64,000 nt of DNA from Podospora anserina (taxonomy: Eukaryota). Under the pieces are notes generated by a model. It did not search any database, was not told the DNA's origin, and saw nothing but the letters and a program-made list of their open reading frames with translations. Location: contig CM030336.1 of assembly GCA_017654855.1 (NCBI GenBank), positions 3,472,001 through 3,536,000 of the forward strand. Reading direction: 5' to 3'. Both the position numbers and the translations under genes were made by a program. Below, piece after piece: positions 6,102 to 63,293 of this stretch (positions are counted from its first letter, which is position 1; each line of letters begins with the position of its first letter).

Positions 6102-7729
6102 ATGTCCGAAAAGCCAGGACAACACCCACCATCGACATACGAACTTGACGACTTGGCTTCTTGTCATGGTGTTCAAGAGGGTGAATACGAATACACCGCA
6201 CTGAGGAGGCAAGGGAACATTCGCTTGCTGCATCTTCTACCGAGCGAGGATCGAAGAAGCCGCTTGGTCTGCCAGCTGCGCGAGTATCCGTTGTTGGCCT
6301 CGAACCAGGCCGAACAAAACCAGGAATTACATCTTTATGAGGCCCTTTCATATACCTGGGGTGATTGGTCAAACCAGAGAAGCATAACCGTGTATTCTCG
6401 TCGGCTATCCGTCACCGATAATCTGTATGAGGCTTTGCTGGCTCTACGAGAACAGCATCTTCCGAGAGCTTTATGGGTGGATGCAATTTGCATAAATCAG
6501 AGAGATGATTTGAAGAAGCAGGAGCAGATTCAGCCAAGCTCTCCATTCGAAACTGCTCGCTTCAACGTTTGATGTTCCACGAGAGCTACAAAGCCAGCTC
6601 CGTCCGGTGGTGTACTCAATAGGACGGGCGATATATCGTCCGAGGAAGACAGCCGGCATTGCTTCGCACGACAAGAGCGAGCTGGGTGAGCTGATCGATA
6701 TGTATCACACCCGACAGGCTACCCTAGTGCATGACAAGGTGCTCGCCTTGTTGGGCATGAGTACCACCGACCCACCACACAAGACATTCCTAAACTATTG
6801 GGTTGGTTGGGATGTTGTTTTCAAGCAGGTGGTAAAGTCTCTATTCGGTGCATTAGTGTCAGTTGATACCTGGTCCCACTCACAGGTGGCTGAGATACAA
6901 GGAAATGGCCAGGTACTGGGCAAAGTAATTCGAGTAGAATTCGATGATGCCAACGGGCGGCAGAAGCTATCCATCGAGTGGAAGTTTTCACAAGCCCAAC
7001 GATTATGCATCGTCTGCAGGCTGGACGCTTCCACTTTCTGCGAAATCAGTCCGGAGGGGTGACATTGTCTGTATCATGAAGGGAGCGTCGAAACCTACCA
7101 TTGTCAGACTTTGCTCAAGCCTCTTCTCTATCATCGTGAGCAGAGTCTCGTGCTGCGGGCCAGAGAACATCAGGAACTTTCCATACCGCTTCTCATTGAT
7201 ATGGGACTGGGGATGCAGAGAGGAGCGACAGCCACAGAGGGGGCCGAGTCACCAAAGTACAGCTGTCATTCTAGAAGCGGTAGGGGACTACAACGATGCG
7301 GCACTGGTTCTCCTGGATTGTGTAAGCAACTGCAAGTCCCTCGGGAGCAAAGCGCAGAGATTAGAGACCATCAATCAGCTCGTCCTCCTGTACAGCAAGG
7401 CAAACCAGATGGAAAAAGGATTCAATCGTCTCCGCAAAGAGCTACAAGGTCGATATCAGTACGACAGGGATGATTTGCAGATCTTGGCCCCGGCAGCAGC
7501 CTCCCAGGATGGGGAGGCCATGCGGCTTCTTATACGTCACGCGGGCGGAATCGATCTGACAGAAGCTGTGCTTCTCGCAGCCGTCCACAGCAATATGCAC
7601 GGCCGTAAGGTCTTGGAGATTCTCTTCAATCAACCACGATACCCCTCAAGTCCGGTCAGTGGCAAAGCAATCACCGAGGCTGTGTTGATAGCAGCCGCCC
7701 AAAATATACCAGAAGGTGCTTTAATATAG
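6102..7729 (+). pseudogene. Disrupted HET-domain gene (het-6-like)
   Basis: IRLLHL, YEALSYTWGD and LWVDAICINQ in 6102-6572, then an early stop. ELIDMYHTRQAT..DKVLALLGMS follows in another frame (6607-7062) and a third frame (6944-7729) has two TEAVL(L/I)AA repeats. The segment normally following the Q-Q-I/V-Q motif is missing. Confidence 0.75.
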
Positions 7730-19715: not shown

Positions 19716-21481
19716 ATACGACTGCTACGAACCGACAAAATTGAGCTTGTGGAAATATACGGCAGCGATGTTGAACCATACGCCATCCTCTCCCACACCT
19801 GAGACAAGGAGGAGGTGTTATTCCAGGATATACAACATCCTGAACTCGCAACCTGGAACTGGAGTACATGTCCTGACACTTGCGAAAATCTCACCCCCGC
19901 TGCTCACTCGTGTTTCGGGAAGAAAGGCTTTTACAAGGTCCGAGAAGCAACCCTCCTCGTCAGAAAGCACGGATTCAACTTCATCTGGATCGACACATGT
20001 TGCATAGACAAGAGTAGCAGCACGGAGCTTTCTAAAGCCATCAGCTCCATGTATCAATGGTACAAAGATGCGCAAGTCTGTTATGCGTTTCTCGCTGGTG
20101 TCGGGTCAGAGGCTGAGGAGGACCCATCTGAAGAGACGTCGACTTTTCAGGGAAGCCGGTGGTTTACGCGGGGCTGGACATTGCAAGAGCTGATTGCCCC
20201 CCGTCAAATTGAGTTCTACGGATATGACTGGAGTCACCTAGGAGATAAATCACCTGGTTCGGGATTTATGGATCTTGTTGCCAATGTTACACACGTTCAA
20301 GTCAGTGTATTGGTAGGGAAACGGCCCCAAACAGCATATGTCTCGGTAAATAAGATCCCCATGTTAATTCTGGTGAGACAGGTGAAGGCTGACAGCTCAC
20401 CCGTCCAACAGCTTCACGCATGCGTTGGGCCGCAGGTCGACAGACTACGCGAGTTGAGGATATCGCCTACTGCCTGCTCGGGCTTTTCGACGTGAACATG
20501 ACACCCCAGTATGGAGAGGGAAAGAAAGCCTTTATTCGTCTCCAGAAAGAGATTCTCAGTCAAGATGACGACCAAGCACTATTCGCCTGGCACGTCAACA
20601 AGAATGACGTTGGCTCGCCTGAGACTCTTTTCGGCCTTCTGGCCGATTGTCCGGATAGATTCCTTGAAATTGGAAGCACCGAACTTGTCACACCAAAATC
20701 TATAGGAGGTCAACCAGTCACCGTCACACCCAGAGCTATCAACATTGAGTTGTTTCTCATTCCGTGCCACGACAAGGGGCGTGCAGATTTCCTCGCCATT
20801 CTCGATTGCGAAATTACCAAGACTGAATCACGTCAAGCACCTGCGGTATATTTGAAGCGACATTGGGGCACCGGAGATCAATATTCCAAGGTTCTTCCCT
20901 CAGAGCATGTTTATGTCCGAAGACAAAACTCGCTTGAGGGAGGCGCCTCATGGCAGCGGATTTTCGTAAAGGCGGAACCAAGATCAAAAGCCGCTATTCT
21001 GAGAATAGTACCCTCCAAGGACAACTCGGGACTCAGAAGCCATGATGAGGGGACCGCCTGCGAATGGGAGGTGATAGAAGCAAAACCTGCAATCTGCTGG
21101 GGTGAGCAAGCTGGGACATTTGAAGTGGAGACCTGCAAAGTTCGTTTCGGGGAACCAATTGGTTTTTTCAAAATCAACATCATCTTGAAAGAAGGCCTTG
21201 TTTTCGTCGAGGTGGCAGTTAGCTTGAAGTTCAATAGTGAACGCTCATGTCGAAGCCGGTGCCAAGTAATCTCTGTGTCCCAGCATTTTCTGGACCTGCA
21301 AGACGGCAAGCACCACGGCTTTATACAGCTTTCAGCGAATATGAGAGACTACCACAGCAGCGAGTTTAACAATGCGTTGTCGCATGATCGTGTGGGAGAC
21401 AAAATACCAGTGTTCATACAACTGACGGAGCATCACCATGGTCAAAGTGAGACTGTTTCACTTCATGTACTCTGTCGATAA
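19716..21481 (+). pseudogene. HET-domain gene with lost start codon and premature stop
   Basis: The frame reads (ATA)RLLRT..PYAILSHT*DKEEVLFQD..IWIDTCCIDKSSSTELS..SMYQWY..SRWFTRGWTLQELIAP, then MRWAAGRQTTRVEDIAYCLLGLFDVNM in another frame. ATA at 19716 stands where ATG is expected and TGA at 19800 where Trp is expected. Confidence 0.85.
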
Positions 21482-25025: not shown

Positions 25026-27635
25026 CTACCGTAACCATATCTCTTCACATACCATCTCCCCAGGTGTCTGAGTCTCTGTTAGGGGGCCTTTACCAACATA
25101 CGCCGCACCAACAACGCTGTATGACATTGTCTTGTTGTCGTTCCCAGATCTCAGAATCAAGTAACCACCACCCATGGTGCAGCCTCGTACCTGCACCAAG
25201 TAATCACCATGATCCAGTGCTAGCATACGGCTGTTGCTTCCAGTGTATCCCGTATCCGTAACAAAAAAGCGAATCCCCTGGCTGTCATATATTCCGGATG
25301 ATTCAGACTCTCGAAACCACCCCAAGATTCGGACTAAACTAGCAAGCACGCAGACAGGACTTCTGTCTTGCGAGAAGCGAATGGCAAGGGCAGTGACTGC
25401 TGCCAACACGGGCAATTTCAGGAACCACAGGAACTTCCAAAGGTGAACAACAAATGCCACCAGAAATCCGGAGTTGGCGATGACACCGAACGGCCAGGCG
25501 AAGAGGTACAGGCTGGTGTCCCCGAGAAACATGCTTAATTCCTGGGTGACCTCTGAAATCAAGCGGCTCATGACGGGGAGACAAGTAGCGTATCAATGTC
25601 TTGATAGCTTGTTCCTAACGAGGTCTCGAGAATCGAGACGCGAAACTCCTAGTAAGCCGCCGGTGATGAAGACGACATCGCCGGCAGACTGGCGCCACAT
25701 GTTTTGGTTTATGTACGACCTGCCCTTTAAAAAGACCCCGAAGGCCTGTGAGATTGCGTTTGTTTCTAACATCGGCTGGATCTTGAAGCCAGAAACAAGT
25801 CTCATGCGCGCGCCATCACAAGGGCAGGAAGCCACTGTGGTAATCCAGGAACAGAGAAACTGAAAGGCCCTTGGAGTGAAGTAGGTGTGTGATGTATAGG
25901 CTGAGGTTGCGTAGGCTATAACGTCAAATTCTCCCGGAGTGCGGGAGGCTATTCGAACTGAGACAAGAATCTGGCGAATATGTGACCTCCAAGTCAGTTT
26001 TATCAACGTTTCGGCCAGAGCGCTCAAGACAGGGTCTAGAGCAGATCTTTGCAGAAGTGGCTTTGCTTGGTTGATCATGGAGATGAATAAAATCTGCCAT
26101 AGCAGCTGGACCGAATTTACGGTTCCGATCTCTTCCACACGGCCGAAGACTTTAGCTTCCACTAGTAAAGACTGTTTGTTGAGCTCGTATCGAACGGCTT
26201 CGTTTGTGGGCTGAGATGTCGAGACAGAGACAAACGTGTCAAGTGTCGAGTAGAGGCAATGCGCGCCGGTATAGGTTGTGTCCAGTCGGGTATCCAAGAG
26301 GGCAAAGTGATAAGACCCTCTGTTTCCGGGGTATAAGATTTGTCTCGTCCAGCTCGAAGGTTGTTTGTAGCCATTAACAATCCGCGCGTTATAGAACATA
26401 GAGAACTGGATACAAGGTTATACGGATTGTGATTGGCGTGAGAAAGAACGTTATTGAAGAGCCGCATGTAAGAATTTGACTGCTGTGCAAGCCGGATGGC
26501 ATCCACGTTTCCATCAAATCTGAAGCAAGCCAGCGTAACAGCTTCGAAGACTTCAGCATCAGTGACGGCCCACGTCGTGATGGGAATCCCGTGGTCAATC
26601 TCAAGCTCCTTAAAAACACCATAGAGAGAAAAGAACTTGTCTTTGCCTCTTGGCAGGACTTGAAGCGCATGGCATTCATGCCGGCTGTGAAGGAAAACTG
26701 AGACAGACCCGTCAGGAGCGACTGGTAAGCTCTTTTTTGGCCGATGGTCCGTCCGGTGCGACGATGCCCCGGTTCATGAATTTCAACACCCCTTTTCAAA
26801 GCAATGGCATCTGCCAGATAAAACTGCAGAGACACAGCTTGATCAACGCTGGCAGAGGCAGGGAGCACCTTGAGCTTCTTCAGGACATCCCAACCCATAC
26901 GGAGGCTGTAAAGGCTGAGGCATGTATCACCGCAGATCACCCTGACGAGATCTGGGTCTGGGAGCGTAACTTCTTGAACTGGCCATGCCCTGGTGAACCA
27001 AGACCTGAAAAAGAAATCCACCATACTCCTCGTTAGCCGTGGCCATTTCCGGGCCAAGTCTAGTGCGACATCTTCTGGACTCTGTTCATCCTTCCAATGG
27101 CCACCAAACCCAGCGACCTTCTCAAAGTACTCACAAACTAGAGCATTAGACTCGTCCTGTTCACCAAGCCAAACTCGGACGCGAGTCACCTTCTTGTAGA
27201 TGTCGCCCATGATGTCAATCTGATGGCCCTTCCCTTCTTTGCCGTTGCTGCCTGGTTGATGCAGATTGCATCGACCCACATCCGCTTGTTTGTGCTTTTG
27301 TCCTTGCAGACATTTCTGAGCGCAGCGACACAGTTCTTTGTCACATAAATGAGACCTCCATCGCAGATGGTCGGGTCGGTTCCATGTTCAGAGTCCCACG
27401 CGTAGGATAGTGCGGTGAAAGAGGGAGCTGAGGCAAGTGGTACTTCTTCCATGGAGCACGCCATGAGCTCGTAATCGTGGCTCCCATCCGGTGCTTGAAT
27501 CGTGATAAGGCGGATTGCTGAGTCGGTACTAGAGAGCGCACGGTAACTATACTTGGGCGGTGGTGCGGCATGACTAGCTGGCTCGATTTCGAGTTGGAAT
27601 GAGGAATCCCCCCATGTATCCGCTAGTCCGAACAC
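25026..27635 (-). pseudogene. HET-domain gene (het-6-like) with several frameshifts
   Basis: YSYRAL..IRLITI..FTALSYAWD..MWVDAICINQ; frameshift to QIDIMGDIYKKVTRVRVWLGE..WFTRAWPVQEV; later LPSWIPDW; C-terminal FFVTDTGYTG..GDYLVQVRG..LILR..YSVVGAAYV. Confidence 0.8.
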
Positions 27636-28351
27636 ATCGGACCTGCCATATCAAGCCTAATGGTATGTCAATCACGACGGCCCATGTAACCATCACGATG
27701 ATCATCTCGGTGAATATAATGAGATCGAGCTTAGAAGGCATCCTAAGTTATTGGGAACTCGACTTTTTGACACTCCTGTGCGGTGAGATCAGAGTTTCAT
27801 GAGGTGAGGGGAAAAGGGCTCAGCTGAACGCGTCAGATGCATTTCTATTCGCCAGAAGGCTGCAGTTGCCAGGCATCCATAGCCAAGCTTATACAACCTT
27901 AAACGAGCTAGGTCATAATGTATATTCAGTAAATACTACTACCTGACCTGGGTACTCCTAGCCATCGTGACCAATCAAACCTCGTAATTACATCTTTCAG
28001 CATCTTAGATATTCCCGGAAAAAGACCAAACGAGGTGTACAAACAGCTTTAATACCACACCTTATCAGACCGGAACATTGTATCACTCCAGAAAGGTCCA
28101 AATGGGACGCTCATCGAGTAAGGTATCAAGGTGAGGTATTCTTCGCAGACAATAGGTTTTATATCACGTTCAAGAACAAAAGCAAACACCATTTGTGAGC
28201 TTTCCACCGCAATATCAAAGACCCAAGCCAGATACCTGGTCTGGATTTATCTACCGTAATGAACCTGCGTCATACTCCTTGTCTACATTCCCTAGACACG
28301 GCCCTTGCCACTCCTTCTCAAGCCTCCGCATCCATCCTTCCCTTCCATCAG

Positions 28352-41255: not shown

Positions 41256-42159
41256 GGGTGGTTTACGATCTGAATGAAGAACACAGGAGTTGAGGGAAAG
41301 AAGAGGAAGATTTCTTTGGTTATGATTTTTGATGAAACGACACGATCTTTACTTAATATTTTGCATGCCTTATGACGGACACACACACATTGGGAATACT
41401 GGAACTAGTTGGGAACGCATACAACAGTTGATGACGCTGGGGCTCATACCACTCGCTTTATGATAGATATTTACGACGATGTACATAGATGCATAGACTA
41501 TAGACTTTGGGGAGACAAGTTGATGGGGAGGTGGAGGAGAGGAGAGGGAAGAAAAGGTTGTTAATATTGTGCTTTTGTGCAGCACTTCTGGGGAGAGCGA
41601 GACTGTGGATATGAGAATAAGAAGTACATATTTGCCATTCATCATTTGGCACGCATAAACTTTTGTACCGTAGTTTACGGAGGTCCACAAGAATTTGTGG
41701 ATGCTTCCAATTTCCTGATCGCGAGACAAGCAAAATCCGAGCCCACCTTTTCGATTTCCTCTTTCGGATGCCAGGAGGCCGCACTTAAGTCTAGCGTTAT
41801 GGAGTATGCCAAGCACAACAGCTACGGTCAACCGCAGTTAACATCGACGATCAACAGCCACAGTTGCGCGAGCCGTTCAGAGGATCCAGGCACGCCAGGG
41901 CAGGTGAGTTGATAGCTGTCGCAAGCCATGGTGTGAGAGCTGTTGAGAGGGCCTAGGGCATGTAGGCTGATAGGTGTAGGTGCCGTCGTAGGTGCCAGTG
42001 AGAGTGCCAGTAAAGCCCTGGGCACCTTGATAGGCAGGTGCGTAGTGCGTTAGTTGGCAAGCAGATAGGTTGATTGCCCTGTTGAACTGGGCCCTGGGCA
42101 GGTTGGATGTACGCTTTGCCCCACAGGCCCTCACCTCAGCGCCCGGCCTACAGCCTCCT

Positions 42160-44074
42160 CCCTTCTGTAAACCCCGTGGCGTCATAGTACATGCAGCTTA
42201 GTAAACTCGTCTAAATACTGCAAAGATGTAGATAGAGTCCTCAGAGATGAATTAGGCGTCATCTACGTCGGGCTCCCTCAATTCCACGAAACATATTTCG
42301 GACGGGTGCTAGATCTTAAGGCAGCATCCGAGGCCGTCTTCAAGAAGTGTAAGGAGGGCGACGAACTACTTTTAAGTAATGGGTGGAGCGGATGGCCGAG
42401 AGATATAAACCTGGACGATGTTTTAAGCTGGTTTGCAGAGCTAAGTGAGAAGCTGGCGAGGCTTGCAGAAGATTACATGTCTATCCCGACACATCGACGA
42501 AGGCCACTAGCACAACCCGACAAGCCAATCCCGGGCTCCACTGCGATACGCAAGTTAGACATCGGCTTCGTGGATGACCCAAAGGCCGGGAAGGACTCAC
42601 AATACCACTGGTTACAAATCCTGGTACCAGGCGAGCTGAAAGCAACCCAGACGCCGATATAGCGGCTCAGGCGGGGCAAGGTCTATAGACCTTGCCACGT
42701 ATACGAAGGAAGTCTTCGCTGCTCAAGACACCGGTCGTTTTATTTTAGGCTTTACTATTTGCGGATCTTTTATGAGGATATGGGAGTTTGATCGGCTTGG
42801 CGCTAGTGTATCGGAGAGGTTTAATATTAACGAAGATGGGTGGCGCTTTGTATTTACGGCCCTCGGGTTTCTCTAGATGAATAAAGAGGAGCTTGGCTTC
42901 GATCTAACATTTATAACGGCTAACGGCCAGCGATTCATCGTGATCGAGCGGAACGGCTCGAAGGAACGGCTCATCATTTATAAGTTGATGCAACGAGCAC
43001 GTTAGGTTGCCGGTCAGGCTACAACATGCTGGAAAGCTCATGCCCAAGGGCAGTCATATATACCGCTCGTCATTAAAGATTCATGGCAGTATCCGGAACG
43101 CGTTGATGAAGGTGAATTATGACGCGGGGCGACCAGTCAACGTCATCAACGTTGCCAGGTATTATTACCACGAAACGGTTCAGATATGTGGAACGGATGA
43201 CGACGCCCGACATAACGTCCGAGGAGGACTAGACTTCACCAGCGCCAAGACTTACCAGCAGAAACAGTCAACCCCCCGGGCCTCAGTTTTGCGAAAACTG
43301 CGCAGCAGCAGCGTGGCTGCTGGTAAGAAACGATCGTCCAGTGAAGCCGGCGCCCCTCTGCCACACAGCAAGCGGTCTTGCTCGGCATCTCAAGCTAGCG
43401 GTAATCTGTCAAATCGGGTGCATCATCGTGTCATTATTCGCGACTATGGAACTCCTATCTACAGGACTAACTCCCGAAGGTCTCTGCTTGCCGTACTTGA
43501 AGGCTGCATTGAAGAGCACGAATCACTACGTAAGGCCGGCATCCTACACAGAGACATCTCTATCAATAACCTCCTGATCAACGAGGATATCAATAATCCC
43601 TCCTGGCCTTTCTTTTTAATTAACCTGGATCTTGCCATTAACGGGGAACGAGAGGGTGCGTCCGGTGCCAATACGAAGACAAGCACGAAGGCATTCATGG
43701 CAATCGGGGCACTTCTAGGCGAGCAGCATTCTTTCATGCACGATCTCGAGTCATTCTTTTGGGTGTTGTGGTGGATATGCATTGACCATGAAGGGCCGCA
43801 CGAGCATAGAGTTAACGCATGGTTCAACTCACGAAATTACATGGACATAAAGGGGTTAGCGATTCAGAAGACAGGGCTAGTAAGCCACGAGGGGGACTTC
43901 CTCAGGATCGCTAACGAGTATTTTACTACTTATTATCGGCCACTGATACGTTGGGTCGACCGGTTACGGAAAGTTGTCTTTCCAAATCGTGGAAGGTGGG
44001 AGAGAGAGGACACAGGGCCATATTTTCAGATGCGGCAGATCCTTCAAGAAGCCCAAATGGATCCGGCTATCTAA
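42160..44074 (+). pseudogene. Fungal-type protein kinase (FunK1/SgK1-like) pseudogene
   Basis: TPWRHST..DVDRVLRDELG, RKLDIGFVDD, ILVPGELK, MRIWEFDRLG, ATTCWKAH, GILHRDISINNLLI, FLINLDLA, FMAIGALLGEQHSFMHDLESFFWVL. In-frame TAA/TAG stops and frameshifts. Confidence 0.85.
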
Positions 44075-44627
44075 GCAAGAGCCAAGAAACCTGGTATTTT
44101 TGTAACTACATTGCTTTATTGTCTGCTCGTTTCAGTCGATTCCCTATAACATAGAGTTATGATGTATCCAAATAAAGGCGAGCCGCACCATCTCGTAGAC
44201 GAGGACTGCATCTGCCATTACTATTTGTATATTCGGTGCGCCTTTGAGTATCATATATGTCGTTGAGTGAGGTAATCGAGTGAGTTTCATTTGCTGCAGC
44301 TAGTGTCCCTTATTTACTCTTTGAACGAGTAACGGCGCTTCATGTCACTGTCAACGTCGCTGCATTTTTAGCCTGGATGTTACCGTCATTGGGTATGACA
44401 TCGTCTGGGAAATTTGGCAATGACAAAAAGGCGATGAGTAAGGCAAAAAAGACCCTGGATCCCTAATCTTACTGCCTTGCCTACCTAAACATGTTGATTG
44501 AAGAATCAGGTAACCGCTCAATTATATGGCAGGCTTTCTGGCTATGAACCTAAACAGCCGCAAACTCTACGTTTCCGCCTATGCCCGATCTAAGATTGTG
44601 CCCATATCTTTCTTTTGAGGGTCAAGT

Positions 44628-47600
44628 GCTGAGCCGTAATATCCCAGTCGAGTTAAAAACACATGCTCTGGTGACACTTTTGCTTGCTCAGAATAGACCC
44701 CTGGCTACATATTACCACGATAGAGAATATAGCCACTTTCATACTTTTGCACTTTTCTAGCAGCTAGTCTAAACCAGAACTTGCAGAAATTTACCTTGCA
44801 AGATCTCGCTGCCATTAAAAATGAAGCTATTCCCACCTTGAAGACCAACCCCCAAATACGAAGTCTACCCGGGTGATGCTCCAGCCCTTAGATACCATTA
44901 GTCAGCTCTGCCTTCTTCAGTCTCCTAGGCAAAGCATTGTCTTCGAGGAAAATAAACCTCAAGAATATGAGAATATACACATCAGAGCTGGGTTAGACAA
45001 AGACAGATGTAAATGAGGGATGTGCCCAAGTAGTGCTCTAATAACGTGGGCGGAATGATCTTGTCTCCAACGTGCCTGTTACATTCAATCAGCCGCTGTC
45101 ATTATCCAAGCAGAAAAGTGAGGCAAACGATCTCGTCCCTCGCATCTTTGCATGTCATTCCTGTCTGCACGACCTGCAGGTTATTACACATTGCGGGAGC
45201 GTAAACCAATCAACTATAGTATACTAGAGCCGTGGCCAGCCTTTTTTTCTGAAGACAAAAGAGCCGCATTGCGCTATAGTAGTGCTGAGCCGTAACGCGT
45301 TATGCCCATGTTCGAGTGGGATAAATTTGAGAACGAAAAATGGCCAGTTCAGAAGGTCGTTGGGTAGGCCGATCATTACAAAAGCCAGGCCAGTCAGGAT
45401 GATTTCGAATATTGGACCATCGGTCGCTTCCGATTAGCCAACAAATCCCCTGCTGATTCAAGAACCTAGTGAAGAACCAAGAGAGAGCAGCTTCACATTC
45501 CTGCTTCTCTTACTGGCTTAGCATGCATCTAGCAGTCACCCTGTCCACAAAAGAAATAACACCCGAGTAGGTTTACCCATATTATATTATTATAAACCTT
45601 ACCTTATGAGATAATCAGTATCCTTTTAAAGATAGTTAATAGGTCTCTGATGATAATTAAAAGGCGTCCGGAGATATTGAAAAGGCCTATTAATCTTGCT
45701 CTTCAGGTATAGTTTACAACCTATAGGGGCTAACTTACTCTGAGTGTCTCAATTATTTTATAGAGAGAGTGACAGTGCATCATGCCGTGACACGTAACCA
45801 GAAACTGACCTATCAGCCGTGTTTTTTTATTAGAGCAAAATCCCAAGTCGACGTCACCATGCAGGAACGTGAGGAATTCTCTTTCACCCCGAGCATTGTG
45901 GCCAATAAACATTGACATGCTAGAGCCTTGGCCTGTTTTTCCATTTCAAACTGGCGGCTTGGTGTGGTGCAGTTTTGTCCGCTGAGACGTAATATCCATA
46001 TGCGGGTGGGTTTGATTCACAAACGGTAAAACTCCCCATCGGTGCAATATGAAGACGTACAAGTGGGAGTCACCAGAGATAGCAGCTGCCGTAGCCTTGA
46101 GATGTTCCTAAATAGTTGATAAATTACTTGAAATTAGGTCTCCCTGCCCGGGTCGTCGAGAACAATATCAAGAATGTCCAATAATCAGTTTATTGAATGA
46201 AATACGTTTAACTTGGGCTTTCATGTTGTGGTCAGGCTTGAATGGCGCTTCCAAATTAATCTTCCCACAAGGTGAGCGGGCCACGTTAAGAAGAGAGAGG
46301 TAAGCACTCAGGGTGTCTGCATCTACTTCGAAGTGATTGGCCAGTGAAAATAACGGCTCAGCTAATATAGTGTGTTTAGGCCACCGGATGAACCAACACA
46401 ACACACTGTGCATAGGTTGGCTGATATCTAACTGGCTATGTGCCCTGCACAATGTCCTCAAAACAGATCTCCGCTCGATGGCACCAAGGGACTGCATCGG
46501 TTGATGCCTGAGCCGAAGTGAGTCTTGGCCAATTAGCAGCGACAAGTCTTATGACTCCGCCACTTTTCGTTTCAGTGTTCATGCAAGTGTCGGTTGCTGA
46601 GCCGTATCCCCCCCCCCAAAATCATGGAGTTCTACGAAGAAAGAACCCTAAGCTCAAGGTAGGTAGATGACTGCCACCGCTCTTTAAACCAAGTTCGATA
46701 AAGCCTTCCATGACATCGGCTTCCCTCTGAAGCTTCCATCCATCATTTCCAAAACGGTCTCAATTATTAGAACACGGCCAGCTTGAATGATGCAAGCAGT
46801 ACTTTAAAATATTGCAACCACAAAATGTACCTTCCCCTTGAGCAACGATTTGAAGACGTCCCGCGTGGTAATTTTAACAGGTGCCGGCTACCAACGTGAC
46901 TCAACATGCGGCGGGCAAAATTTACGGCTCAGCCGTGCAGCTTTTGGAGGGGTAAGATGAAAAGAAAAGTATGCCTTCCTCTGATCTTTTTGGACTTTCA
47001 TTGGTTAAGTGGTACAGGACGCAGTTTGACGCGAAACACACCGCCATCACTGCAGGTTTGGCTACCCAATGAAAAGCAAGGGATTTCACTGTTTCCGACT
47101 TCGAGAGCTCCAAACTTTGAGGGGTCGCTGAGCCGTAGTCTTCTGGTACTGCGGTACTCTAAGCCCTTGGAATAGGCGGTGTTAACATATGGCCAAGTGC
47201 CATCATTTACCCTGATTTGAAAGGTGATAGCGACTTGATCAGAACCATGCTTCACTGAACTGCTAGAAGTTGGGGGGACAGAACTGACAGGCTCCGGACT
47301 TGGAAGATAGCCGAGGCAGATTCTTTACCCACTGTGCTGTGTTTTTTTGCCAGCCGTGGACTTGAGAGATGAATTCTGCCTCGAAAATCACGGCTCACAG
47401 AGCTCCGCCACTCCGATAGCTCCGCCACTCCGAGTCAAGGATGAAAAATGGCCAGTCCTCATCCACCTCTCCATTCCATTGGTTACTCGTATGCGCATGA
47501 CGCGTCCTGGGGTGAAAAACTTGTTAACACCACCCTGCTGCATATCTTGGCAACGTCTTGAAGAAAGCCTTGCATGCTGGAGACGGAAATTCCTGTTGCT

Positions 47601-47870
47601 CCCTGAACAAGTGCACAAGAATGGCTAACGCTCTTCGGAAGACAAGACATGCATGCACCTTTCGGTAATTGGAAGGTCTTTGATGGTTGATGAAACAGTC
47701 CATATTAAGGCACAAAGGTTCAGCATGTATTGGCTGTCTCACAGTCTGTATGTTTGATGAGGATAACAAGCGACCAGAAGATGACATTGTCCTGTCTTCT
47801 GACAAGTGTCAATGCTGTATTGACTTCGAAACACCGCCACCGTAGTTGGGGAAACATATTACGGCTCAGC
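44628..47870. promoter_or_regulatory. Dispersed cluster of the motif GCTGAGCCGT(A) / (T)ACGGCTCAGC
   Basis: Exact 10-mers: + orientation at 44628, 45284, 46596, 47127; - orientation at 46353, 46924, 47861. One-mismatch copy GCTGAGACGTAATATCC at 45981. A regulatory role is inferred. Confidence 0.7.
45565..45740. mobile_element. Small AT-rich element with imperfect TIRs and internal 21-bp units (MITE-like)
   Basis: Left GAGTAGGTTTACCCATAT; right (reverse complement) GAGTAAGTTAGCCCCTAT. Internal AGG(T/C)(C/G/A)T cores at 45641, 45662, 45683, 45705. Related to 56483-56642. Confidence 0.6.
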
Positions 47871-48547
47871 GTGATGTTTTGCAGATCTTGTCGATCCTCA
47901 GAAACGAAAGGGAAATATAGCCACGTAGTCTTTGGTAGTCACCTCATTGGTTCGGCAGCCCACACATGGGCATCTAGGACCTTGATCAAGACTTACTAGA
48001 TCCCTACTCGGTAGATTGATTAGGGACTCAAGGCTTGTTGAGCAAGAAAACAACATGCAAATGCAGCCACCTCTGACCTAGGTATTGGCCTGCAGCCCAC
48101 CGCTTTAGTTTTGCATGAAGACGCATGCAGAAGGGCTCATAGCACAATGATTGCTCTCCTGGCGAGAGTCATAATACTTTCTGGCTTTTCACAAAACAAT
48201 CAAGTGTTGACATCTGCTCCTTTCTTTTCAATTCTTTTTTTACCTAACCTCGGTGAGTTTGAGGTAAAATCGGCAGAGCCGTCATCCAGCGCGCGCATGG
48301 CTTGATTTCGGGTTTGCTCACCGTAGACTCGGGATACATATTTATGGGATCCAATTTACCAAGTCAGATCAATGTGATAGCTAATGAGGGTGTAGCGACA
48401 GCTTGAAACAATGCTCAGGTACTCTATTTGCGCTAGTCATAAGAGAAAGCTAAAGTCGTATTGTGAAAGAGGAGCAAACAAAGAAAGAGAAGGGCCGTTC
48501 AAGGCGACTACGTGATACCCCTTCAGATGGCGCCTTAAGACCCGCGT

Positions 48548-51500
48548 TTATCCACGCTTTTCGACCCCAAATAACCCCTATTTTCCTGTTAGCATTTCTT
48601 CATAACATCCACCCATAGAGGCGGGTGAGGTAGGAGAGATATACCAGAAGCGAGTCGAGCTGTTCCGCTCTAATCCCACGCCTGCGCTTTCCAAAGCCTC
48701 CACTGGCTAGTTGAAGTTTTGCCTCTTGTCTAGAGAGAACATTGCTCTGAGAACACATACCATGTCAGGGAATTTCCTTCTGCGATCCATGCCCCAGGAA
48801 GATGTTGGGGTGTACTTACATCTTCAATGGTGTGCTTCACGATATATCGTACTATTGCCACCTGTTCTGTTTGCCCCAGACGTAAAGCTCTGCCAATGGC
48901 CTGGAGTTCAACGGAGGGGTTCCACTGTGGCTCCATGAGATAGATACGACTTGCGACGGCGAGATTGAGTCTGCGAGAAAGAGGTATTAGTTTTGCAGTG
49001 CTTGGGAATGTAGGACTGCTCTGCCCACCCGACTGCCCCTGTTCCCAGTGTCATCAGGAGGACGTTTGCGCCAGATGAAGATCGAAAATCTTTCAGAATG
49101 CGGATCCGCTCACCGAGCGACAGTGAGCCATGGATACAGTAGAACGGAATGCGATAGCTTGTCAGAAGCTCTGATATTAGGTTCAGGGTTTTTTTCCAAG
49201 ATGAGAAAATAATGCTGGGTTATTAGAGGGTCAGCACTTGGATGTTTTTTCTGCATGGGACAGCTTAGGTCATCCGTACCTCTTCTGCGATAAGTGCATG
49301 GAGATATCCTTCAAGAGAGCCAGGAGCTTCGAGGGGTATTGAGTAGGTATTTTTGGAGTTGTATGACTAGTATTGCCAAGAGGAAGAGAATGCTGGACTT
49401 GTCCGACAGGGTGAAGGGGACATTGGCTGTCTGCGGCGTGGTATTGCGGCATACAGGCGCGACAGACAAGGTGCAGACAATCCGGGAGAAGTAGGCCTCC
49501 GTCGGTATCAGGCCTGTCGTTGATGGAATATACTTGCCTAAAACAAAAAGAACAATCTGCCTCGTTGTTCTGCTGTAGGTAACTAAGCACTTCGTCCATA
49601 TCCATTTGGGGCATTGGCGAGGCCGTCCCCGACTCTCGCTTGGGGATTCCGTTGTTGCAAAAAAGTCGAAGTTTGAGCAGTGATTCCAGAACTGTTGAGT
49701 TCAGCTTTCCTCGCCCATGTCCACTCACTGCCCTATCAATCTCACGTCGGCATTGTTGTTCTATATTTTTGTACTCCTGGCGTTCTGCTGGAGTGAGCTC
49801 AACACCTCTCAGTTTCGGCTCTGGATCTGGCAACCCGAGAATATCTCTGGTTCGCCTCAGACAAATGCTTCCCAAAAGCACACGGAGATTCTTGAACCGC
49901 TCCCGTGACTTGGCTGTGGATAAGTTAGCAATATACTTTCGAAACGTTGCTGGGTTTTCGACGCTGGGCACCCTGAGAAAGGATACCAGAGCCCCGAGAT
50001 CATCGACTGCGTTCTGGATAGGTGTCCCTGTTAGACACCATCGATGTTGAGCACGTAGCTCAGCTGTGGCTTGGTGTTGCTTTGTTGACGGATTTCGAAT
50101 CTCATGGGCTGTGGACAACCCAGGTCAGCAAACACAAGGTCAAGCGTGGAGATGGTTGACACACCTTCATCTAGCACGATCCTAAACCAGTCAATGAAAC
50201 GCAAAACAGCCTGCCCTTTACGTAGCTCAGCAGCAACAGTTGCATATGTAGTCAATACAACATCGTTTTCCAGCAGTTGTTTTCGGCTTCTGTCGTCCTG
50301 TCTTCCCTGACCGTGGTGCTTGTGCCACGTAATATAGCCGGGGTAAGTGTGTCTAGGACATGTCAGTTCCAGACAGACATTCTTGTTGTGACAATCTCAT
50401 CACTCACTTCCGAATTTCATCAATCCAACTGTCTATAAGCACTAGAAGCATGTTAGGTTCATGTCGCAGGCGGGGCGCGGTATTCTTTGCTTACGTGAAG
50501 ACGGGCAAACGACTAGGGTTGATCTTGATGCCACCACGGCTGCAGACCTCTGCCCGGGATTTTTGCCTTGAGAAAGGAATGCGCTCGCGCGGCCCATAGA
50601 TCCTGCAATCGTCGACAGGACCACTAGAGTTTTTCCAAGACCCATGTCATCTGCGATAATTCCCCCTTGTACATCCCTCGCCTCTTTGGACCTCCCACCC
50701 GTAATTATGTGCTGATATCTGGGACAACGTCAGTATCCCGATGCCGGTAATAGCGTAAAGGAGCCGCATACAAGCACTCCTCCAAGTCCGAATCATCATC
50801 CTGACACTTCTCCCAGAGACTCATCTCGGCGGGAAGGTCTCCAGTCTCGCGTCTAAGAATAAAATCAAGAGCTTCGGCCTGGTGGCTGTATTACATGTAT
50901 TAGTAATTGACCTTTCAAGCATTCAAAGGAGACAACACACTCGAGCAGGGTCGTTCTGATGATGCTTCTGTCTGCCACAGACTTAGCAAGGATGCTATGA
51001 TATGATAAAGAGTTGAGAATGCTATTGATCTCCGCAGTATCGTTGGTGGGCTCGACCTCGTTTTGCATCACTCTTTTAATTGGGTCGTTTGCTGGGGAGT
51101 GCGAATTGTGAGACTGGCTGTTGTGAAGGGCGATGGGGGTCTCAGAAACCTCTTTCCCGAGAACCTCTTCTAAATGAAGATAATGAGGATTGTAGTAAGT
51201 AAAGCCGTCAAGCCCGAACTGTGGTTGTTGCAGGAAAAGTTGCGCCTTGGACAGAACTCTACCAACATCAGCTGCATGTCGTCGGCGACCGTATATGTTG
51301 AGATCAAAGTTGACGACGGCCGACATCCTTTCTCGCTCCCAGCGACGCATCATCCTCACCCACTCCTCATATGAGATGAAGGCCTGCAGACGTAATTCTA
51401 CGTCGCGGGAAAAGGCTCGAAAGTGTTGACACACTTTCTTGTTTAGAACGGCAAACTTCAACCCCTGAAAGTCGAGCGCATAAAAGGCGCCTTGCTCAAG

Positions 51501-52232: not shown

Positions 52233-55200
52233 ATGGCGGCGTCATTGGCTAAGGCCACGGCTGTCACGATGGCCGTGGCAGGGCTTGGAGCGAATGATGT
52301 TCATCCGGGAGCTCCGTTTGAACAGGCGCTTGAGCAGTTCAAGAAGGGGCTACGACCAAAGCATCGATCGACATTCCAAACAACCACGCTTCCCGATCTT
52401 CTTGCAGCAATTGACAAAATTCAGAAGGAGCAGCACTCCAGTCGACGACTTCAAGCCGTTGGACGATTGAAGCCCACTCTTGAAGCGCTTAATCAATTGG
52501 GCAAGGTCGTTGAGACGTTTACAAACACATCAGAATTTGTCGCTTTTGTCTGGGTGAGATTGCATGAGATCTGCGACCGACTCAATTGGCCTGCTAATAT
52601 CTCAGGTACCCAGGGACCATTGAAGTTCTTGATTCAGGTTCTAGCAATCTATCCTTGGTCTTTGTTCGTCTTGCTGACGGGGAAATAGATTGGTAGCTCC
52701 TTTGTGGAAGCATTCACTGAGCTCCTTAGTATCTATGAGAGTCTTGGAGAGGAGCTGCCGCTTGTCCAACAGTACGAAGCCATTTTCTCGAAGGATTCAG
52801 ACATGAAGAGGGTCCTGGCCTATCTCTACAAGGACGTCCTGGAGTTTCATCACCGGGCGTTGAAGTACTTCCAGCAGCCGAGTATGCGTTCATTTCTTAC
52901 TCCGCCCACAAAGCGTCTATCTTCTACCTGGGGTTGTATGGTTGTGCACTAACAATGCCAAACCCATTCAGTGTTGAAGCAGCTATTTCAGGCGACCTGG
53001 AAAACTTACAAGTCTCGGTTCGACGATCTGATCAACGGCATCAAGAGGCACAGGGAACTAATTGTTTATCACGCCAATTTGTTACGTATCAAGGCATCCT
53101 TAGACGACAGACGCAACATAGACCAGCAATTCAGCCAGATCGCCGGCGCTGTTAACCAGGCCAGCCTGTCTATCAAGGCATGTTTGGATGAGCGAAAAGT
53201 CAGAGACCAACAGCTCAAGGAGATGGCTGATGCCGAGAGCAACAGAAAGCTTCGCGAGTTGCAGGGGTGGCTGAGGGCCAGCAATGTTGCCAATGACCAA
53301 CATGAGTTCTGCAAGCTTCGAGGCGAATACCCAGGTACAGGATCATGGTTACTGGATAATCCAAAGTTCAAAGAGTGGTTTGAAACACCCTGTCAGCTGA
53401 TGCCTCCAGTGTTGTGGCTCAATGGTATTCCAGGTGCAGGTCAGTGTCAGAAAAGGAGCCATCATTTGCCTTACGCTGCTGACTTCTTCAAAAGGCAAGA
53501 CAATTCTCGCTTCTTTAGTTGTCGAAAAGGCCCAGCAGCTCAACCCCCCTCCGGCCGTCTTGTACTTCTTTTGCAAACATGGCGACAACGAACGAGACAA
53601 TTTTGTCTCCATCGCGCGCAGCTTCCTCTCTCAACTTCTTCCGTATAATCGAGATATACTGCTTCCATACTATCACGATAAATATCAGAGTAGCACGGAG
53701 GCAGTCCTGGACACCCGAAGCATCATCGAAGATTTACTCAAGGTGCCCATTCGAAATTTCCCGCACGTGTACATCATCCTGGACGGGATTGATGAGTGCC
53801 CGAGGAAAGAACGCGACATCATAGCCTCCTGGTTTCGCGAACTTGTTGAGGACCTTCCACAGAGTAATCCCACACAAATTCGATGTCTGTTTGTGAGCCA
53901 AGAAGATGGGGTAGCACGAAAGGACTTTGCGGGTGTTTCTGTGATCAAAATTCGAAGCCAGGACAACCTGCGCGACATTGAACAATACAGCGCCAAGTGG
54001 GCGATCGACATCCAGAAGAAATTTGAGCTTCCCGACACCAAGCGAGAATCGATCGCAAAGCTCATTGTTGACGCTGCCGGAGGTGAGTACAGTATTCAAC
54101 GCCAAAGTCCAATCGCTAACTCACCATCTAAGGCATGTTTCTACTTGCCAAGTTAATTTCCACCAACCTTCTTCATCAACTTGATGTCGAGGAGTTGGAA
54201 TATGAGCTTGAACCAGGACGATTCCCGCGCGAGATCAATGCTGCGTAAGACTCCTAACCTTCAAGTTGAAAGCGCGGGACAAGTAATTGCTGACGTCTGA
54301 TTTCTGTTTACAGTTACTCTCGAATTATCGTGAGAATATTCGACCATGTGACCGAGTCGGAACAGCACGGGAGTAGGATGCTACTGAGCTGGCTGGTTTG
54401 CGCCAAACGGTCCATGAAGTGGCATGAGATCCAGGGCGTGAAGTCCATTGACTTGGAAACAAAGTCGGTAGATTTCCAACGCTTGCGGTTTCGCGTTGAC
54501 TCAAAAGATCTTTGCGGATCGCTCGTTGAAATCCGGTCCGACGGGACGGTAGAACTTGTTCATCTGACCGCTAAACTGTAAGATCCCTATGTCCCCATTC
54601 CGTCTTACCACTCATGCTTCTAACCTTGTTCAAGCTTTCTTATCAGTGAAAAACATGTCAACCCAGCGCGAGGAGAATTGCAACTAGCTTCTCTGTGCGT
54701 CAATTATCTCAACTTTCCTATCTTCAACGATGAGCTTGAACCCAAAGAGAAGCATTGTCTCATCCTTAATGGGTCCTACGCGTTCATGGACTATGCCATT
54801 GTTTACTGGGTGCGGCATCTTGAGGCTAGTTTGGCATCTCTGGAAAAAGACGGTACCGATGCGCGCGATATTTCCGAGACCCTAGAAGATTTTATTGAGC
54901 TTCACTACATCAATCCAGCCACTCACTTTCCCGTCTCACAAGGAAACGCTGCAAGACTTCGCTGCTTTGAGGATCTGGATTGTCATGACCGACTGCAGCA
55001 GGCAGTCATATCGACACGAAAGCAGCTTACATTCTACGGTGAGATGAACAAAGCCGAGATTGCCCTCGACCTTGTGGACATTGTGGAGAGTATTCGAGCT
55101 GCACTTGAAAGGCTGCTGCTAGGGATCCAGAACGGGGATGGGGTGGCAGCCAAGCTTGAAAAGCACTATGGTTCTAACCTCTTCAAATGTCCCAGGCTCA

Positions 55201-55904
55201 GCTGCAAATTCTTCACGAACGGGTTTGCAACCGCTGAGCGACGGAACCAACACCTTGGAAAGCACCAGAGGCCTTTTCGATGTGCCATTGAGGGTTGTTT
55301 GAGTGGAACCACCGGTATGGCGTCGGAGAAAGAGCTACAAAAGCACATGAAGGAATCTCATGGCGGGTATCAGTCTCACGACGAGTTTCCAGACAACGAT
55401 GAAGTATATCGGAGTCTCCAGCCACAGTTATCCATAACCAACTCCGGCAATCAGACAGGTTTGGTAATTCAAGAGCCTACCGTGGCGGAAACGACAACAA
55501 CTGAAGCACCTGAAGCCCAAGACCCAGCATCTGATAATGTCGCTCGCGAAGTGATAGGACATCAACGGCAGCAGAGTAATAAAAGACAAAAGATTGAGTA
55601 CATATGCTGGTTTTGCTACAAAGTCTATAACCGCAAATTCAACCTCGACTCACATCTTTTAACTCATAGCGAGGACCGGCCTTGGAAGTGCGACCTCTGC
55701 ACCAAAGCCTTTGCGCGGGAAAGCGACTTGAAGAGACATCGGCAAGGCCATGATGAAGGGAGCCATGTTCCGTGCCAAGGGTGTGGCAAGAAGTTTGCAC
55801 GCCAGGATACATTGGCGAATCACCACAAGTCAAAGTTGGGGAAAAGGTGCTTGTCAGCCTTGAATTTGCAAAACCATGCTGAAGAGTCAACTCCATCGGC
55901 GTAG
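52233..55904 (+). CDS. NACHT NTPase (fungal NLR-like) with five C-terminal C2H2 zinc fingers, multi-exon
   Basis: Helical N-terminus (VAFVW|GPLKFLIQ), YPGTGSWLL, Walker A WLNGIPGAG|KTILAS, VLYFFC, Walker B YIILDGIDEC, VELVHLTAK, YAFMDYAIVYWVRHLE. Two fingers near 55190-55360 and three near 55600-55850. Confidence 0.88.
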
Positions 55905-56320: not shown

Positions 56321-56392
56321 GGTTGTATAGTGTAGCGGTTATCACTCCGGATTCTGATTCCGGCAACCCCGGTTCGAGTCCGGGTACGACCT
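56321..56392 (+). tRNA. tRNA-Gln (anticodon CTG)
   Basis: Acceptor GGTTGTA/TACGACC, anticodon arm CCGGA-TTCTGAT-TCCGG, T-loop GGTTCGAGTCC. 72 nt, no intron. Confidence 0.95.
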
Positions 56393-62629: not shown

Positions 62630-63293
62630 ATGGTATGCCTTCACCCCACTTTGCAACTGCCTCATGTCTTGATGAAAAAGAGACCTGACTGACGATGTCG
62701 CCGCCCACTTGCACAGGCACCTCACGGGAATAACCTCTCCAAGGATGAGATTGCTCAGTTCAAGGAGGTGTTTGAGATTTTTGTAAGATTTTCCCTCACT
62801 TTCACACCTCACTCCTCTTCTGCATCACCAAGTCACACCCGCCAAGATGGCCTCCCTCATCCATCCCTCTCAACCAACCACCATTTACCCTCTCCCTGAC
62901 TCTTCCCAGGACAAAGACGGCACAGGCGACATTACCGCTGCCGAGCTGGGCGCCGTCATGCGTGAACTCGGCCTCAACCCCTCCCCGGAGGAGCTCCAAG
63001 ACATTGTCAACGAGGCGGACCTCAACAAGGACGGCGTGATCTCGTTTGAGGAGTTCCTGTCACTCATGTCGATGGGCGTCAAGGAGACGGACACGGAGCA
63101 GGAGCTGGTCAACGCCTTCAAGGTGTTTGACAAGGACGGGAGCGGGACCATCAGCAGCGACGAGCTGAGGAATGTGCTCAAGTCCCTGGGCGAGAACCTC
63201 ACGGACGCGGAGCTGGACGAGATGATCAAGCTGGCGGATAAGGATGGGGATGGGCATATCGATTATCAGGAGTTTGCGCATATTATGAAATAG
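62630..63293 (+). CDS. Calmodulin-like four-EF-hand protein (exons 62630-62632, 62717-62782, 62910-63293)
   Basis: EF loops DKDGTGDITAAE, DLNKDGVISFEE, DKDGSGTISSDE, DKDGDGHIDYQE. GT..AG introns keep the frame. Confidence 0.88.

Follow-up and report, generated by a model that had tools for sequence, protein, structure and literature searches.

A dense cluster of one ten-nucleotide word between convergent genes of Podospora anserina, tentatively read as binding sites for a single protein

Genomic context of the cluster

The DNA analysed is a 64-kb window of the Podospora anserina genome. Within it lies an unannotated gap of 4.3 kb in which copies of one short word accumulate (Table 1). The gap separates the 3' ends of two convergent genes. 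The gene on the right is expressed; its nine minus-sense introns were recovered in four of four runs, and the RNA-like contigs stop at 48413-48462. Many HET, NACHT and FunK1 genes lie in the surroundings.

Table 1. Coordinates in the window of the gap, its neighbouring genes, the copies of the word and the associated features
Feature	Position	Strand	Remarks
Left neighbour ORF, Pkinase_fungal (FunK1)	42989..44074	+	matches C-terminal half only (profile 197-387 of 387)
Unannotated 4.3-kb gap between 3' ends of convergent genes	44075..48412	.	whole motif array inside
Exact copy	44628..44637	-	extended form GGATATT-ACGGCTCAGC, flank type A
53-nt GT..AG intron, low-level transcript	45075..45127	-	1 contig, run X16
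Diverged paralogue of 45857-46040	45106..45350	+	old duplication, about 697-751 bp; includes copies 45284 and 45981
Exact copy	45284..45293	-	
One-mismatch copy ACGTCTCAGC	45981..45990	-	flank GGATATT, type A; paralogue of 45284 unit
Exact copy	46353..46362	+	flank GAAAATA, type B
Degenerate copy TTCGGCTCAGG	46507..46517	-	2 mismatches vs 11-mer TACGGCTCAGC
Exact copy	46596..46605	-	flank GGGGAT, type A, 3 nt shorter
Exact copy	46924..46936	+	flank CAAAATTT, type B; within 13-nt near-palindrome ACGGCTCAGCCGT (CGG-N5-CCG)
49-nt GT..AG intron, low-level plus-sense transcript	46969..47017	+	1 contig, run X17
Exact copy	47127..47136	-	
Degenerate copy ACGGCTCACA	47390..47399	+	flank GAAAATC, type B
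Exact copy	47861..47870	+	with 44628-44642, perfect 15-nt inverted repeat spanning 3,243 bp
One-mismatch copy ACGGCTCTGC	48273..48282	-	flank GGATG, type A
Expressed multi-intron SNF2/RING-finger gene (right neighbour)	48413..51000, continuing past 51000	-	SNF2-rel_dom, zf-RING_5

The gap shows little sign of coding capacity. None of the 43 stop-to-stop ORFs (at least 45 aa; 43 of the 48 listed) searched against Pfam reached the curated cut-off, and the five weak matches (E 0.006-0.046) all fell below it; a coding relic was ruled out on this count. Three of ten ATG-ORFs are present in the protein collection, solely as unnamed ORF calls on run contigs. A 91-aa ORF found no relative in that collection; for a 126-aa ORF there is a single relative, 90% identical, and no distant homologue. 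In a relative's ORF, P0125, the four residues LAEP, whose codons span the 46353 copy, are conserved, and about six adjoining codons differ and carry a frameshift; because overall divergence is low, the comparison speaks only weakly for conservation of the word. When an SNF2 exon was used as a query in metagenome contigs, 287 pattern matches were obtained and none was confirmed as a related locus. Rfam gave no match at E<=1 in 42000-50000 and a tRNA search found none in the gap. Neither these searches nor the folding results given below pointed to a structured RNA, a snoRNA or a tRNA-derived element.

Transcripts were followed through contigs of four runs. The runs that cover part of the stretch, X15-X20 (share 0.15-0.43; six of the ten runs X15-X24), are guessed, and not recorded, to be RNA. 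Two canonical small introns, one on each strand, show that the gap is transcribed in both directions. The plus-sense spliced transcript covers the copies at 46924 and 47127, and no start-codon ORF longer than 59 aa was found in the spliced gap transcripts. Contig cover is missing from about 44075-44748, 45340-46190 and 47328-47611, a lack that is given no weight here, and contig ends cannot place transcript ends relative to the copies. One run contig has a 193-nt loose end at 46203 with no match to the window, explained perhaps by chimerism or by variation between strains.

Number and distribution of the copies

The word ACGGCTCAGC occurs exactly seven times in the window against 0.09 expected; none of 100 dinucleotide-preserving shuffles reached seven. 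It is the top-ranking 10-mer of the 64 kb, ahead of simple-sequence words. An exact match search of the window returned all seven copies at the positions listed in the earlier note, and all lie inside 44628-47870. The chance that all seven would land in 3,243 of 64,000 bases is P ~1e-7. The earlier impression that exact copies are confined to the cluster also held, there being none in the remaining 59.7 kb. With up to one mismatch allowed, 14 matches were found against 3.96 expected, ten of them at 44628-48282; the four outside correspond to chance level. For the 6-mer core ACGGCT, the gap has 13 occurrences where 1.85 would be expected.

The one-mismatch copy reported earlier at 45981 is present, and three degenerate copies, at 46507, 47390 and 48273, add to the earlier list, bringing the total in the gap to about 11 (seven exact, four degenerate). 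Three further details of that list were recovered: the word followed by GTAATAT in three copies (44628, 45981 and 47861); TTTGAGGG(G)TC ahead of two copies, directly at 47127 and with four bases (AAGT) intervening at 44628; and the near-palindrome at 46924. A run of ten C at 46608-46617 follows the 46596 copy.

A scan of metagenome contigs served as a control only. The 14-mer TATTACGGCTCAGC was found at at least 119 loci, and a second copy of the 10-mer was found in 0 of 119, with flanking DNA of up to 2 kb taken for 80 of these loci and possibly less for the others. The word thus has no general tendency to cluster. In the literature the 10-mer is printed in 124 papers and the 11-mer in ten. 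Neither ACGGCTCAGC nor its 11-mer appeared as a fungal cis-element among the literature matches listed, which were animal, plant and bacterial work, and a search directed at Podospora gave nothing relevant among the matches listed.

The conserved block and its flanks

In an alignment of ten copies the conserved word extends over about 17 nt and reads G.A.ATT-ACGGCTCAGC; its 3' edge is sharp. Mean pairwise identity is 0.92 over the 10-nt core and 0.42 over positions -7 to -1 on the 5' side. For a 7-nt block, 2000 random sets gave a null of 0.252 +/- 0.025, and the highest of them, 0.362, fell short of 0.42. The other flank blocks are at random level (0.26, 0.21 and 0.24). Column by column, the ten copies read A in seven, T in eight and T in seven, followed by an invariant ACGGCTC; among the exact copies, T directly precedes the word in six of seven. 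The proposal that the flanks are otherwise unrelated therefore stands beyond about 17 nt, where identity is random. It does not stand for the 7 nt on the 5' side, which are significantly alike, nor for the 45284 and 45981 units, which are paralogous. An identity profile of this shape points to a recognition site and not to a decaying long repeat.

Fast mutation of repeats does not account for the unrelated flanks. The gap carries no RIP signature (TpA/ApT 0.80; (CpA+TpG)/(ApC+GpT) 1.34) and the differences in the degenerate copies are transversions, so that repeat-induced mutation was ruled out as the cause of flank divergence.

Descent of the array by local duplication

The copies fall into two flank types. 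A GAAAAT-type flank (type B) accompanies four of the four plus-strand copies and a GGAT flank (type A) four of the six aligned minus-strand copies. In addition, the 45284 and 45981 units can be aligned over about 150-240 nt. A direct repeat search found 39 nt at 72% for this pair, and comparison of 40-nt windows gave 28/40 at offset 696 and 27/40 at offset 751, where the null maximum is 25-26 (five shuffles). The unit-to-unit alignment z-scores are inflated where the masked core was spanned (N matched N), and the pair rests on the repeat and window comparisons. No other direct 40-nt window exceeded the shuffle maximum. The flank subfamilies and the one paralogous pair thus show local duplication to be the origin of the copies; the array has expanded in this way with the word alone surviving.

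The statement in the earlier note that this is not a tandem duplication is accordingly wrong in part, for the 45284/45981 pair. The tandem repeat search (TRF) found only a 17-nt x1.9 repeat at 47401-47433, which follows the 47390 copy. With this repeat and one diverged pair about 700 bp apart as the only such features, a large tandem repeat or satellite was ruled out.

The array could instead be a neutral relic without function, a locally amplified short unit that has since decayed. Survival of the word would then be due to chance, or to a bias of mutation or gene conversion. Descent by duplication fits this, one or two substitutions have already accumulated in four copies, and a weak inverted match between 46612-46639 and 47250-47277 is followed by no recognisable copy at 47278, which hints at a lost site. 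However, with flanks at 0.21-0.26 identity, ten intact contiguous positions in seven copies are not credible under neutrality, the gap is free of a RIP signature, and we know of no process that homogenises a 10-nt patch yet leaves the neighbouring bases random. We regard a functionless relic as improbable.

A cluster of candidate binding sites and its rivals

The reading that we favour, tentatively, is that the approximately 11 copies form a homotypic cluster of candidate high-affinity sites for one sequence-specific DNA-binding protein. Conservation is limited to a site-sized block with free flanks, and several copies lie within a few kb beyond chance, as such a cluster requires. The copies, their statistics, the shape of the block, the flank types, the paralogous pair, the lack of a coding or RNA-family signal and the spliced transcripts are observations; selection, protein binding and regulatory output are inferred. 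The recognised word would be about 13-17 bp, (G.A.)ATT-ACGGCTCAGC, asymmetric and able to work either way round. A founding unit with one plus- and one minus-oriented site may have been multiplied locally, after which all but the word would have drifted to random identity. The word itself would, on this view, have been under purifying selection. The many sites would then give a high local occupancy of the factor in the 4.3-kb gap. The likely output would be control of the low-level spliced non-coding transcripts of the gap, and a possible second role would be separation of the two convergent transcription units. The class of factor that seems most likely is a zinc-finger protein, either of the C2H2 Crz1/CDRE type or a Zn2Cys6 protein reading a CGG half-site.

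The earlier suggestion of selected protein-binding sites is thus supported in part; a conserved site-sized block amid random flanks, together with descent by local duplication, favours it over chance or a recent repeat. Its companion suggestion, a marker sequence, taken as one of accessory regions or of giant mobile elements, gained no support; the ORFs scanned in the window contained neither a recombinase nor a transposase domain.

Several features count against binding sites. Transcription-factor sites usually tolerate degeneracy, and identity at 10/10 positions in seven copies is unusually strict for them. The position of the array is between two 3' ends and not in a promoter, and the gap transcripts are weak. 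Finally, the conserved block ends sharply on its outer side and grades off on its inner side, as transposon termini also do.

The copies might accordingly be the ends, or subterminal binding repeats, left by a non-autonomous DNA transposon that has decayed, or by several MITE-like elements lying nested or side by side. In that case the word would be the terminus bound by the transposase, and the array would be a relic that does nothing for the host. The outermost exact copies form the perfect 15-nt inverted repeat, 44628-44642 with 47856-47870, which encloses all other exact copies, and several 10-nt inverted pairs are present, as terminal inverted repeats would be. Copies face each other in the pairs 46353/46596, 46924/47127 and 47861/48273, TA stands ahead of CGGCTCAGC in six of the seven exact copies, and surroundings with many HET, NACHT and FunK1 genes are typical of variable fungal regions. 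However, no target-site duplication was found at the outer pair, where only 2 nt (GT) agree, or at the inner pairs 45981/46362, 46596/46933 and 47127/47399, where nothing is shared. The inverted similarity ends at 10-15 nt, and, except for the 45284/45981 duplication, the putative elements share no internal sequence. The left copies at 44628, 45284 and 45981 have the same orientation and no partner within three mismatches. No transposase or recombinase domain was found in 43 gap ORFs or in 14 + 111 window ORFs, the facing pairs fold ordinarily (z -0.41 and -0.93), and the rest of the window holds no exact copy. On balance a transposon origin is unlikely.

A different possibility is that the word acts in RNA or as a core promoter, as a shared or start-proximal motif of a small non-coding RNA family made from both strands. 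Transcription and splicing of both gap strands fit this, as do a contig that begins at 46374, 12 nt past the 46353 copy, the common orientation of the three left copies with the minus-sense transcript, and A/T-rich TATA-like bases beside several copies. Against it, contig ends cannot show RNA starts, and other contigs run through the copies at 46596, 46924, 47127 and 47861. The copies also switch orientation within a single plus-sense transcript, and neither Rfam nor the fold z-scores gave a signal of structure. We give this explanation a small chance.

Equally slight is the chance that the array is a dedicated chromatin device and not an enhancer, in which about 11 strong candidate sites between the two convergent genes would be bound by a zinc-finger or Myb-like protein. 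It might insulate, block transcription or replication, or serve as a sponge for the factor. Such a device would be likened to the Su(Hw) array of gypsy and to the B-box clusters of fission yeast, which bind TFIIIC. No comparable device in filamentous ascomycetes appeared among the listed matches of literature printing the word.

Significance

If the word is a binding site, it offers a very specific probe of 13-17 bp with which a new DNA-binding protein could be isolated from a model-type Sordariales fungus. The locus would then also be a natural multi-site array between convergent genes, suited to questions of non-coding RNA control, insulation and termination. If the word is instead the terminus of a dispersed element, a small transposon family has been overlooked by annotation. 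Under either reading the value is local and moderate, with no bearing on a long-standing open question.

Comparison with known site systems

Arrays of sites for one factor are known from several systems. The GAL1-10 UAS has several Gal4 sites, the Aspergillus niiA-niaD region several NirA sites, and the gypsy insulator 12 Su(Hw) sites. The array described here resembles homotypic clusters in that one short word recurs far more often than chance allows, in both orientations and at irregular spacing, over a few kb without coding function. It differs from classical UAS and insulator arrays in its wider spacing of 203-697 bp, and from the usual homotypic clusters in the invariance of 10 bp in seven copies and in its position between 3' ends.

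A second point of comparison is the calcineurin-dependent response element (CDRE) of Crz1. The consensus in yeast is GNGGC(G/T)CA, the Aspergillus forms are GTGGCTC and GAGGCTC, and a GGCTC core is reported for Aspergillus and Magnaporthe CDREs, as given in passages of two papers (PMC9604740, PMC2873923). Measured against these, ACGGCTCA agrees with the yeast consensus at seven of eight positions, GGCTC included. The consensus is nevertheless missed at position 1, which is G in the CDRE and A in 10/10 aligned copies here, and the Trichoderma form, GDGGCKBNB, is missed at two. The invariant T before the core and GC after it appear in none of the CDRE descriptions considered. Described CDREs are promoter elements of ion-pump and cell-wall genes and are not arrayed, unlike the array between 3' ends, and nothing in the present results ties this locus to calcium signalling. 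We treat the apparent resemblance to the Crz1 site as a lead only. An asymmetric site of about 8-11 bp, as in the CDRE, suits a protein with two or three zinc fingers.

Comparison by eye with bZIP/Maf-like half-sites, with Reb1/Abf1-type sites and with the Pol III A-box, for which only seven of nine specified positions fit, gave no candidate worth keeping.

Zn2Cys6 proteins read sites based on CGG triplets; the UaY site is TCGG-N6-CCGA and the GliZ site TCGG-N3-CCGA. The word likewise contains a CGG triplet, and at 46924 a CGG-N5-CCG inverted pair lies inside ACGGCTCAGCCGT. Unlike the symmetric Zn2Cys6 sites, however, the second triplet is present in only one of the seven exact copies. A symmetric dimer is thus not the rule, and a Zn2Cys6 protein would require a monomer or heterodimer site.

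Clustering of the word

The 10-nt word ACGGCTCAGC has seven exact matches in the 64-kb window against 0.09 expected from dinucleotide-preserving shuffles (none of 100 reached seven), and ranks first among all 10-mers of the window, ahead of simple-sequence words. The match count bore out the positions and orientations given in an earlier note on this DNA, as well as its statement that no exact copy lies elsewhere in the window. The probability of all seven sites landing inside 3,243 of 64,000 bases is ~1e-7. With up to one mismatch, 14 matches were found (3.96 expected), ten of them within 44628-48282 and a chance-level number outside (8884, 17920, 27815 and 42966). The one-mismatch copy previously seen at 45981 is present, and three degenerate copies were added (Table). 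The 6-mer ACGGCT occurs 13 times in the unannotated gap at 44075-48412, where 1.85 are expected, and a T directly precedes six of the seven exact copies. The same earlier reading was right that GTAATAT extends three copies, that TTTGAGGG(G)TC precedes two, and that 46924-46936 is a near-palindrome. The motif cluster is real and strongly non-random.

Table. Copies of the word and introns in the gap (window positions)
Feature	Position	Strand	Basis
Exact copy of ACGGCTCAGC	44628	-	exact match count
Exact copy of ACGGCTCAGC	45284	-	exact match count
Exact copy of ACGGCTCAGC	46353	+	exact match count
Exact copy of ACGGCTCAGC	46596	-	exact match count
Exact copy of ACGGCTCAGC	46924	+	exact match count
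Exact copy of ACGGCTCAGC	47127	-	exact match count
Exact copy of ACGGCTCAGC	47861	+	exact match count
Degenerate copy ACGGCTCTGC	48273	-	added to earlier list
Degenerate copy ACGGCTCACA	47390	+	added to earlier list
Degenerate copy TTCGGCTCAGG	46507	-	added to earlier list
53-nt intron, canonical	45075-45127	-	one contig, run X16
49-nt intron, GT..AG	46969-47017	+	one contig, run X17

Location and neighboring genes

The plus-strand ORF to the left of the array ends at 44074; of the FunK1 kinase profile it covers just the C-terminal half. On the right, a minus-strand SNF2/RING gene has nine small introns that recur in each of the four runs compared, and its contigs terminate at 48413-48462. Thus the two genes converge, and the array, 44628-48282, fills the 4.3 kb that separate their 3' ends. 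The Pfam domains of the window are fungal content: HET, NACHT N-terminal, Pkinase_fungal, DUF2434, COG5, copper amine oxidase, SNF2/RING and calmodulin-like EF-hand. The best named relative of the copper amine oxidase is from Podospora fimiseda (74% identity), followed by other Sordariales.

In the region 42000-44074, the FunK1 ORF matches only Pkinase_fungal profile positions 197-387, is nearly without contig cover in the four runs compared, and lies in the only mildly RIP-like 2-kb bin (TpA/ApT 0.91, (CpA+TpG)/(ApC+GpT) 1.11), and so may be a pseudogene. The region includes three ACGGCT words, at 42916-42971. At 6042-6569, 19803-20492, 26392-27650, 52953-54153 and 54624-55901 are several HET-domain ORFs, together with a NACHT N-terminal domain that precedes an ORF with C2H2 zinc fingers. 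HET/NACHT content represents allorecognition- or NLR-type genes, as is typical of variable regions in fungi. A calmodulin-like EF-hand array is encoded by an ORF at 62787-63290, of note only in that one candidate factor for the motif acts in calcium signalling.

Coding capacity and transcription of the gap

None of 43 stop-to-stop ORFs (≥45 aa) tested from the gap reached the Pfam cut-off, and three of ten ATG-ORFs were found in the protein collection, solely as run-contig ORF calls without a name. The window has a single tRNA, at 56321, outside the gap. Tandem Repeats Finder reported a single repeat in the gap, 17 nt x1.9 at 47401-47433, and dinucleotide indices gave no RIP signature there (TpA/ApT 0.80, (CpA+TpG)/(ApC+GpT) 1.34).

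Run contigs, presumed to be RNA by inference rather than by record, span the nine SNF2 splice junctions and also contain one intron on each strand of the gap (Table). The spliced forms of the gap transcripts have no ATG-ORF longer than 59 aa, and are read as low-level non-coding transcription of both strands. An RNA-level or core-promoter role for the word would fit such transcription, and one contig begins 12 nt past a copy, contig ends not being equal to RNA ends. Four copies, however, are traversed by other contigs, and neither structure nor family signal was seen: stretches between facing copies folded no more stably than shuffled ones (z -0.41 and -0.93), and Rfam gave no match at E≤1 in 42000-50000. 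Such a role is improbable.

A contig of run X18 matches the window only from 46203 on. The 193 letters that precede are unrelated, the first 30 of them not being found in the window, and may represent a strain-specific insertion, a rearrangement or a chimeric contig.

Anatomy and interpretation of the word

Ten copies were aligned in a single orientation. Each of the ten core columns is invariant or 9/10, positions -3 to -1 favor A (7/10), T (8/10) and T (7/10), with weaker signal at -5 and -7, and the first column 3' of the core is already background. Mean pairwise identity is 0.92 in the core, 0.42 at -7 to -1, 0.26 at -25 to -8, 0.21 at +10 to +16 and 0.24 at +17 to +34. Against the null for a 7-nt block (0.252 ± 0.025, maximum 0.362 in 2000 random sets), these identities define an asymmetric conserved unit of ~17 nt with a sharp 3' edge.

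A 10-nt block intact in seven paralogous copies, with adjacent bases at random identity, is hard to reconcile with neutrality; a neutral relic fits these identities poorly and is improbable. The conserved block is shaped like a recognition site. On these two grounds the array is tentatively favored, at somewhat under even confidence, as a putative homotypic cluster in which every copy would bind the same sequence-specific protein. Transposon termini are an unlikely second choice. The array lies within a perfect 15-nt inverted pair (44628/47856), and the conserved block has a sharp outer edge, but no target-site duplications or transposase remnant were found, the interiors are unrelated, three co-oriented copies have no partner, and the other 59.7 kb of the window holds no copy.

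As binding sites, the array may control the spliced non-coding transcripts of the gap or separate the convergent transcription units, as its site between two 3' ends and those transcripts suggest. The strictness of the word and the position between convergent genes would be unusual for a homotypic array. In two papers (PMC9604740, PMC2873923) the yeast Crz1 site is given as GNGGC(G/T)CA and the Aspergillus CDREs are GTGGCTC and GAGGCTC, with core GGCTC. The core ACGGCTCA agrees with that Crz1 consensus at 7/8 positions and includes GGCTC; however, the first consensus base is mismatched in every copy, and the word has extra invariant bases absent from any CDRE described there. The resemblance is a lead, not membership. 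The CGG-N5-CCG layout of Zn2Cys6 dimer sites is present, but in only one of the seven copies.

Origin of the array

Flank subfamilies track strand: a GAAAAT-like flank is found at 4/4 plus-strand copies (46353, 46924, 47390, 47861) and GGAT at 4/6 aligned minus-strand copies (44628, 45981, 46596, 48273). The units round 45284 and 45981 are, judged by alignment, diverged paralogues. Lying 78-79 nt from the word, a 39-nt stretch agrees between them at 72% identity; 40-nt windows reach 28 and 27 matches at offsets 696 and 751, respectively (maximum 25-26 in five shuffles); and a gapped alignment runs for ~150 nt, its z-score being inflated by masked bases that matched one another. A tandem duplication, dismissed earlier for the whole cluster, is thus indicated for this pair; in no other pair of units was homology beyond the word found. 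The copies were also checked as fragments of one longer repeat, and none was recognisable. Differences in the decayed copies are transversions, not RIP-type transitions. In the simplest history, a unit with one plus and one minus copy would have been duplicated locally, after which all but the word decayed.

Relatives and other words

For the 126-aa ORF across the 46353 copy a single relative was found, P0125, which is 90% identical along 53% of the query. P0125 keeps LAEP, the residues read across the word; about six codons beside it differ, with a frameshift, and the 60 residues that follow are almost unchanged. Since overall divergence is low, this points to constraint only weakly. A 137-aa member of the ORF cluster, P0122, joins ORFs 46436-46582(-) and 46168-46497(-), which implies a between-strain indel polymorphism near 46490-46500. 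Searching metagenome contigs with a protein as anchor turned up no locus related to this one. A 14-mer search of these contigs hit at least 119 unrelated loci, with no second copy of the 10-mer among the 119 listed. The 10-mer is printed in 124 papers and the 11-mer in 10; among the matches listed, this literature was animal, plant and bacterial work only.

Two other words are enriched in 44075-48413, CATGCA (11 vs 2.15 expected) and TGGCCA (7 vs 1.20), and AAAAATGGCCAGT accompanies two copies of the 10-nt word (45284 and 47390) at a distance of ~46-48 nt. An imperfect palindrome of ~107 nt and uncertain significance, with the 46507 degenerate copy inside it, spans 46439-46545, a stretch that can be aligned with its reverse complement. 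On either strand, the 10-mer CATTGGCAAC, with a CCAAT box on its opposite strand, is scattered at five positions (20277, 22359, 30878, 53286, 60634) and may be a promoter element. The 9-mer GACAATGTC is scattered at seven (7061, 13791, 25123, 39552, 47783, 56768, 63000); containing ACAATG, it looks more like a favored start-codon context than a regulatory word. Its copy at 47783 is upstream of an 87-aa minus-strand ATG-ORF (47524-47787) in the gap.
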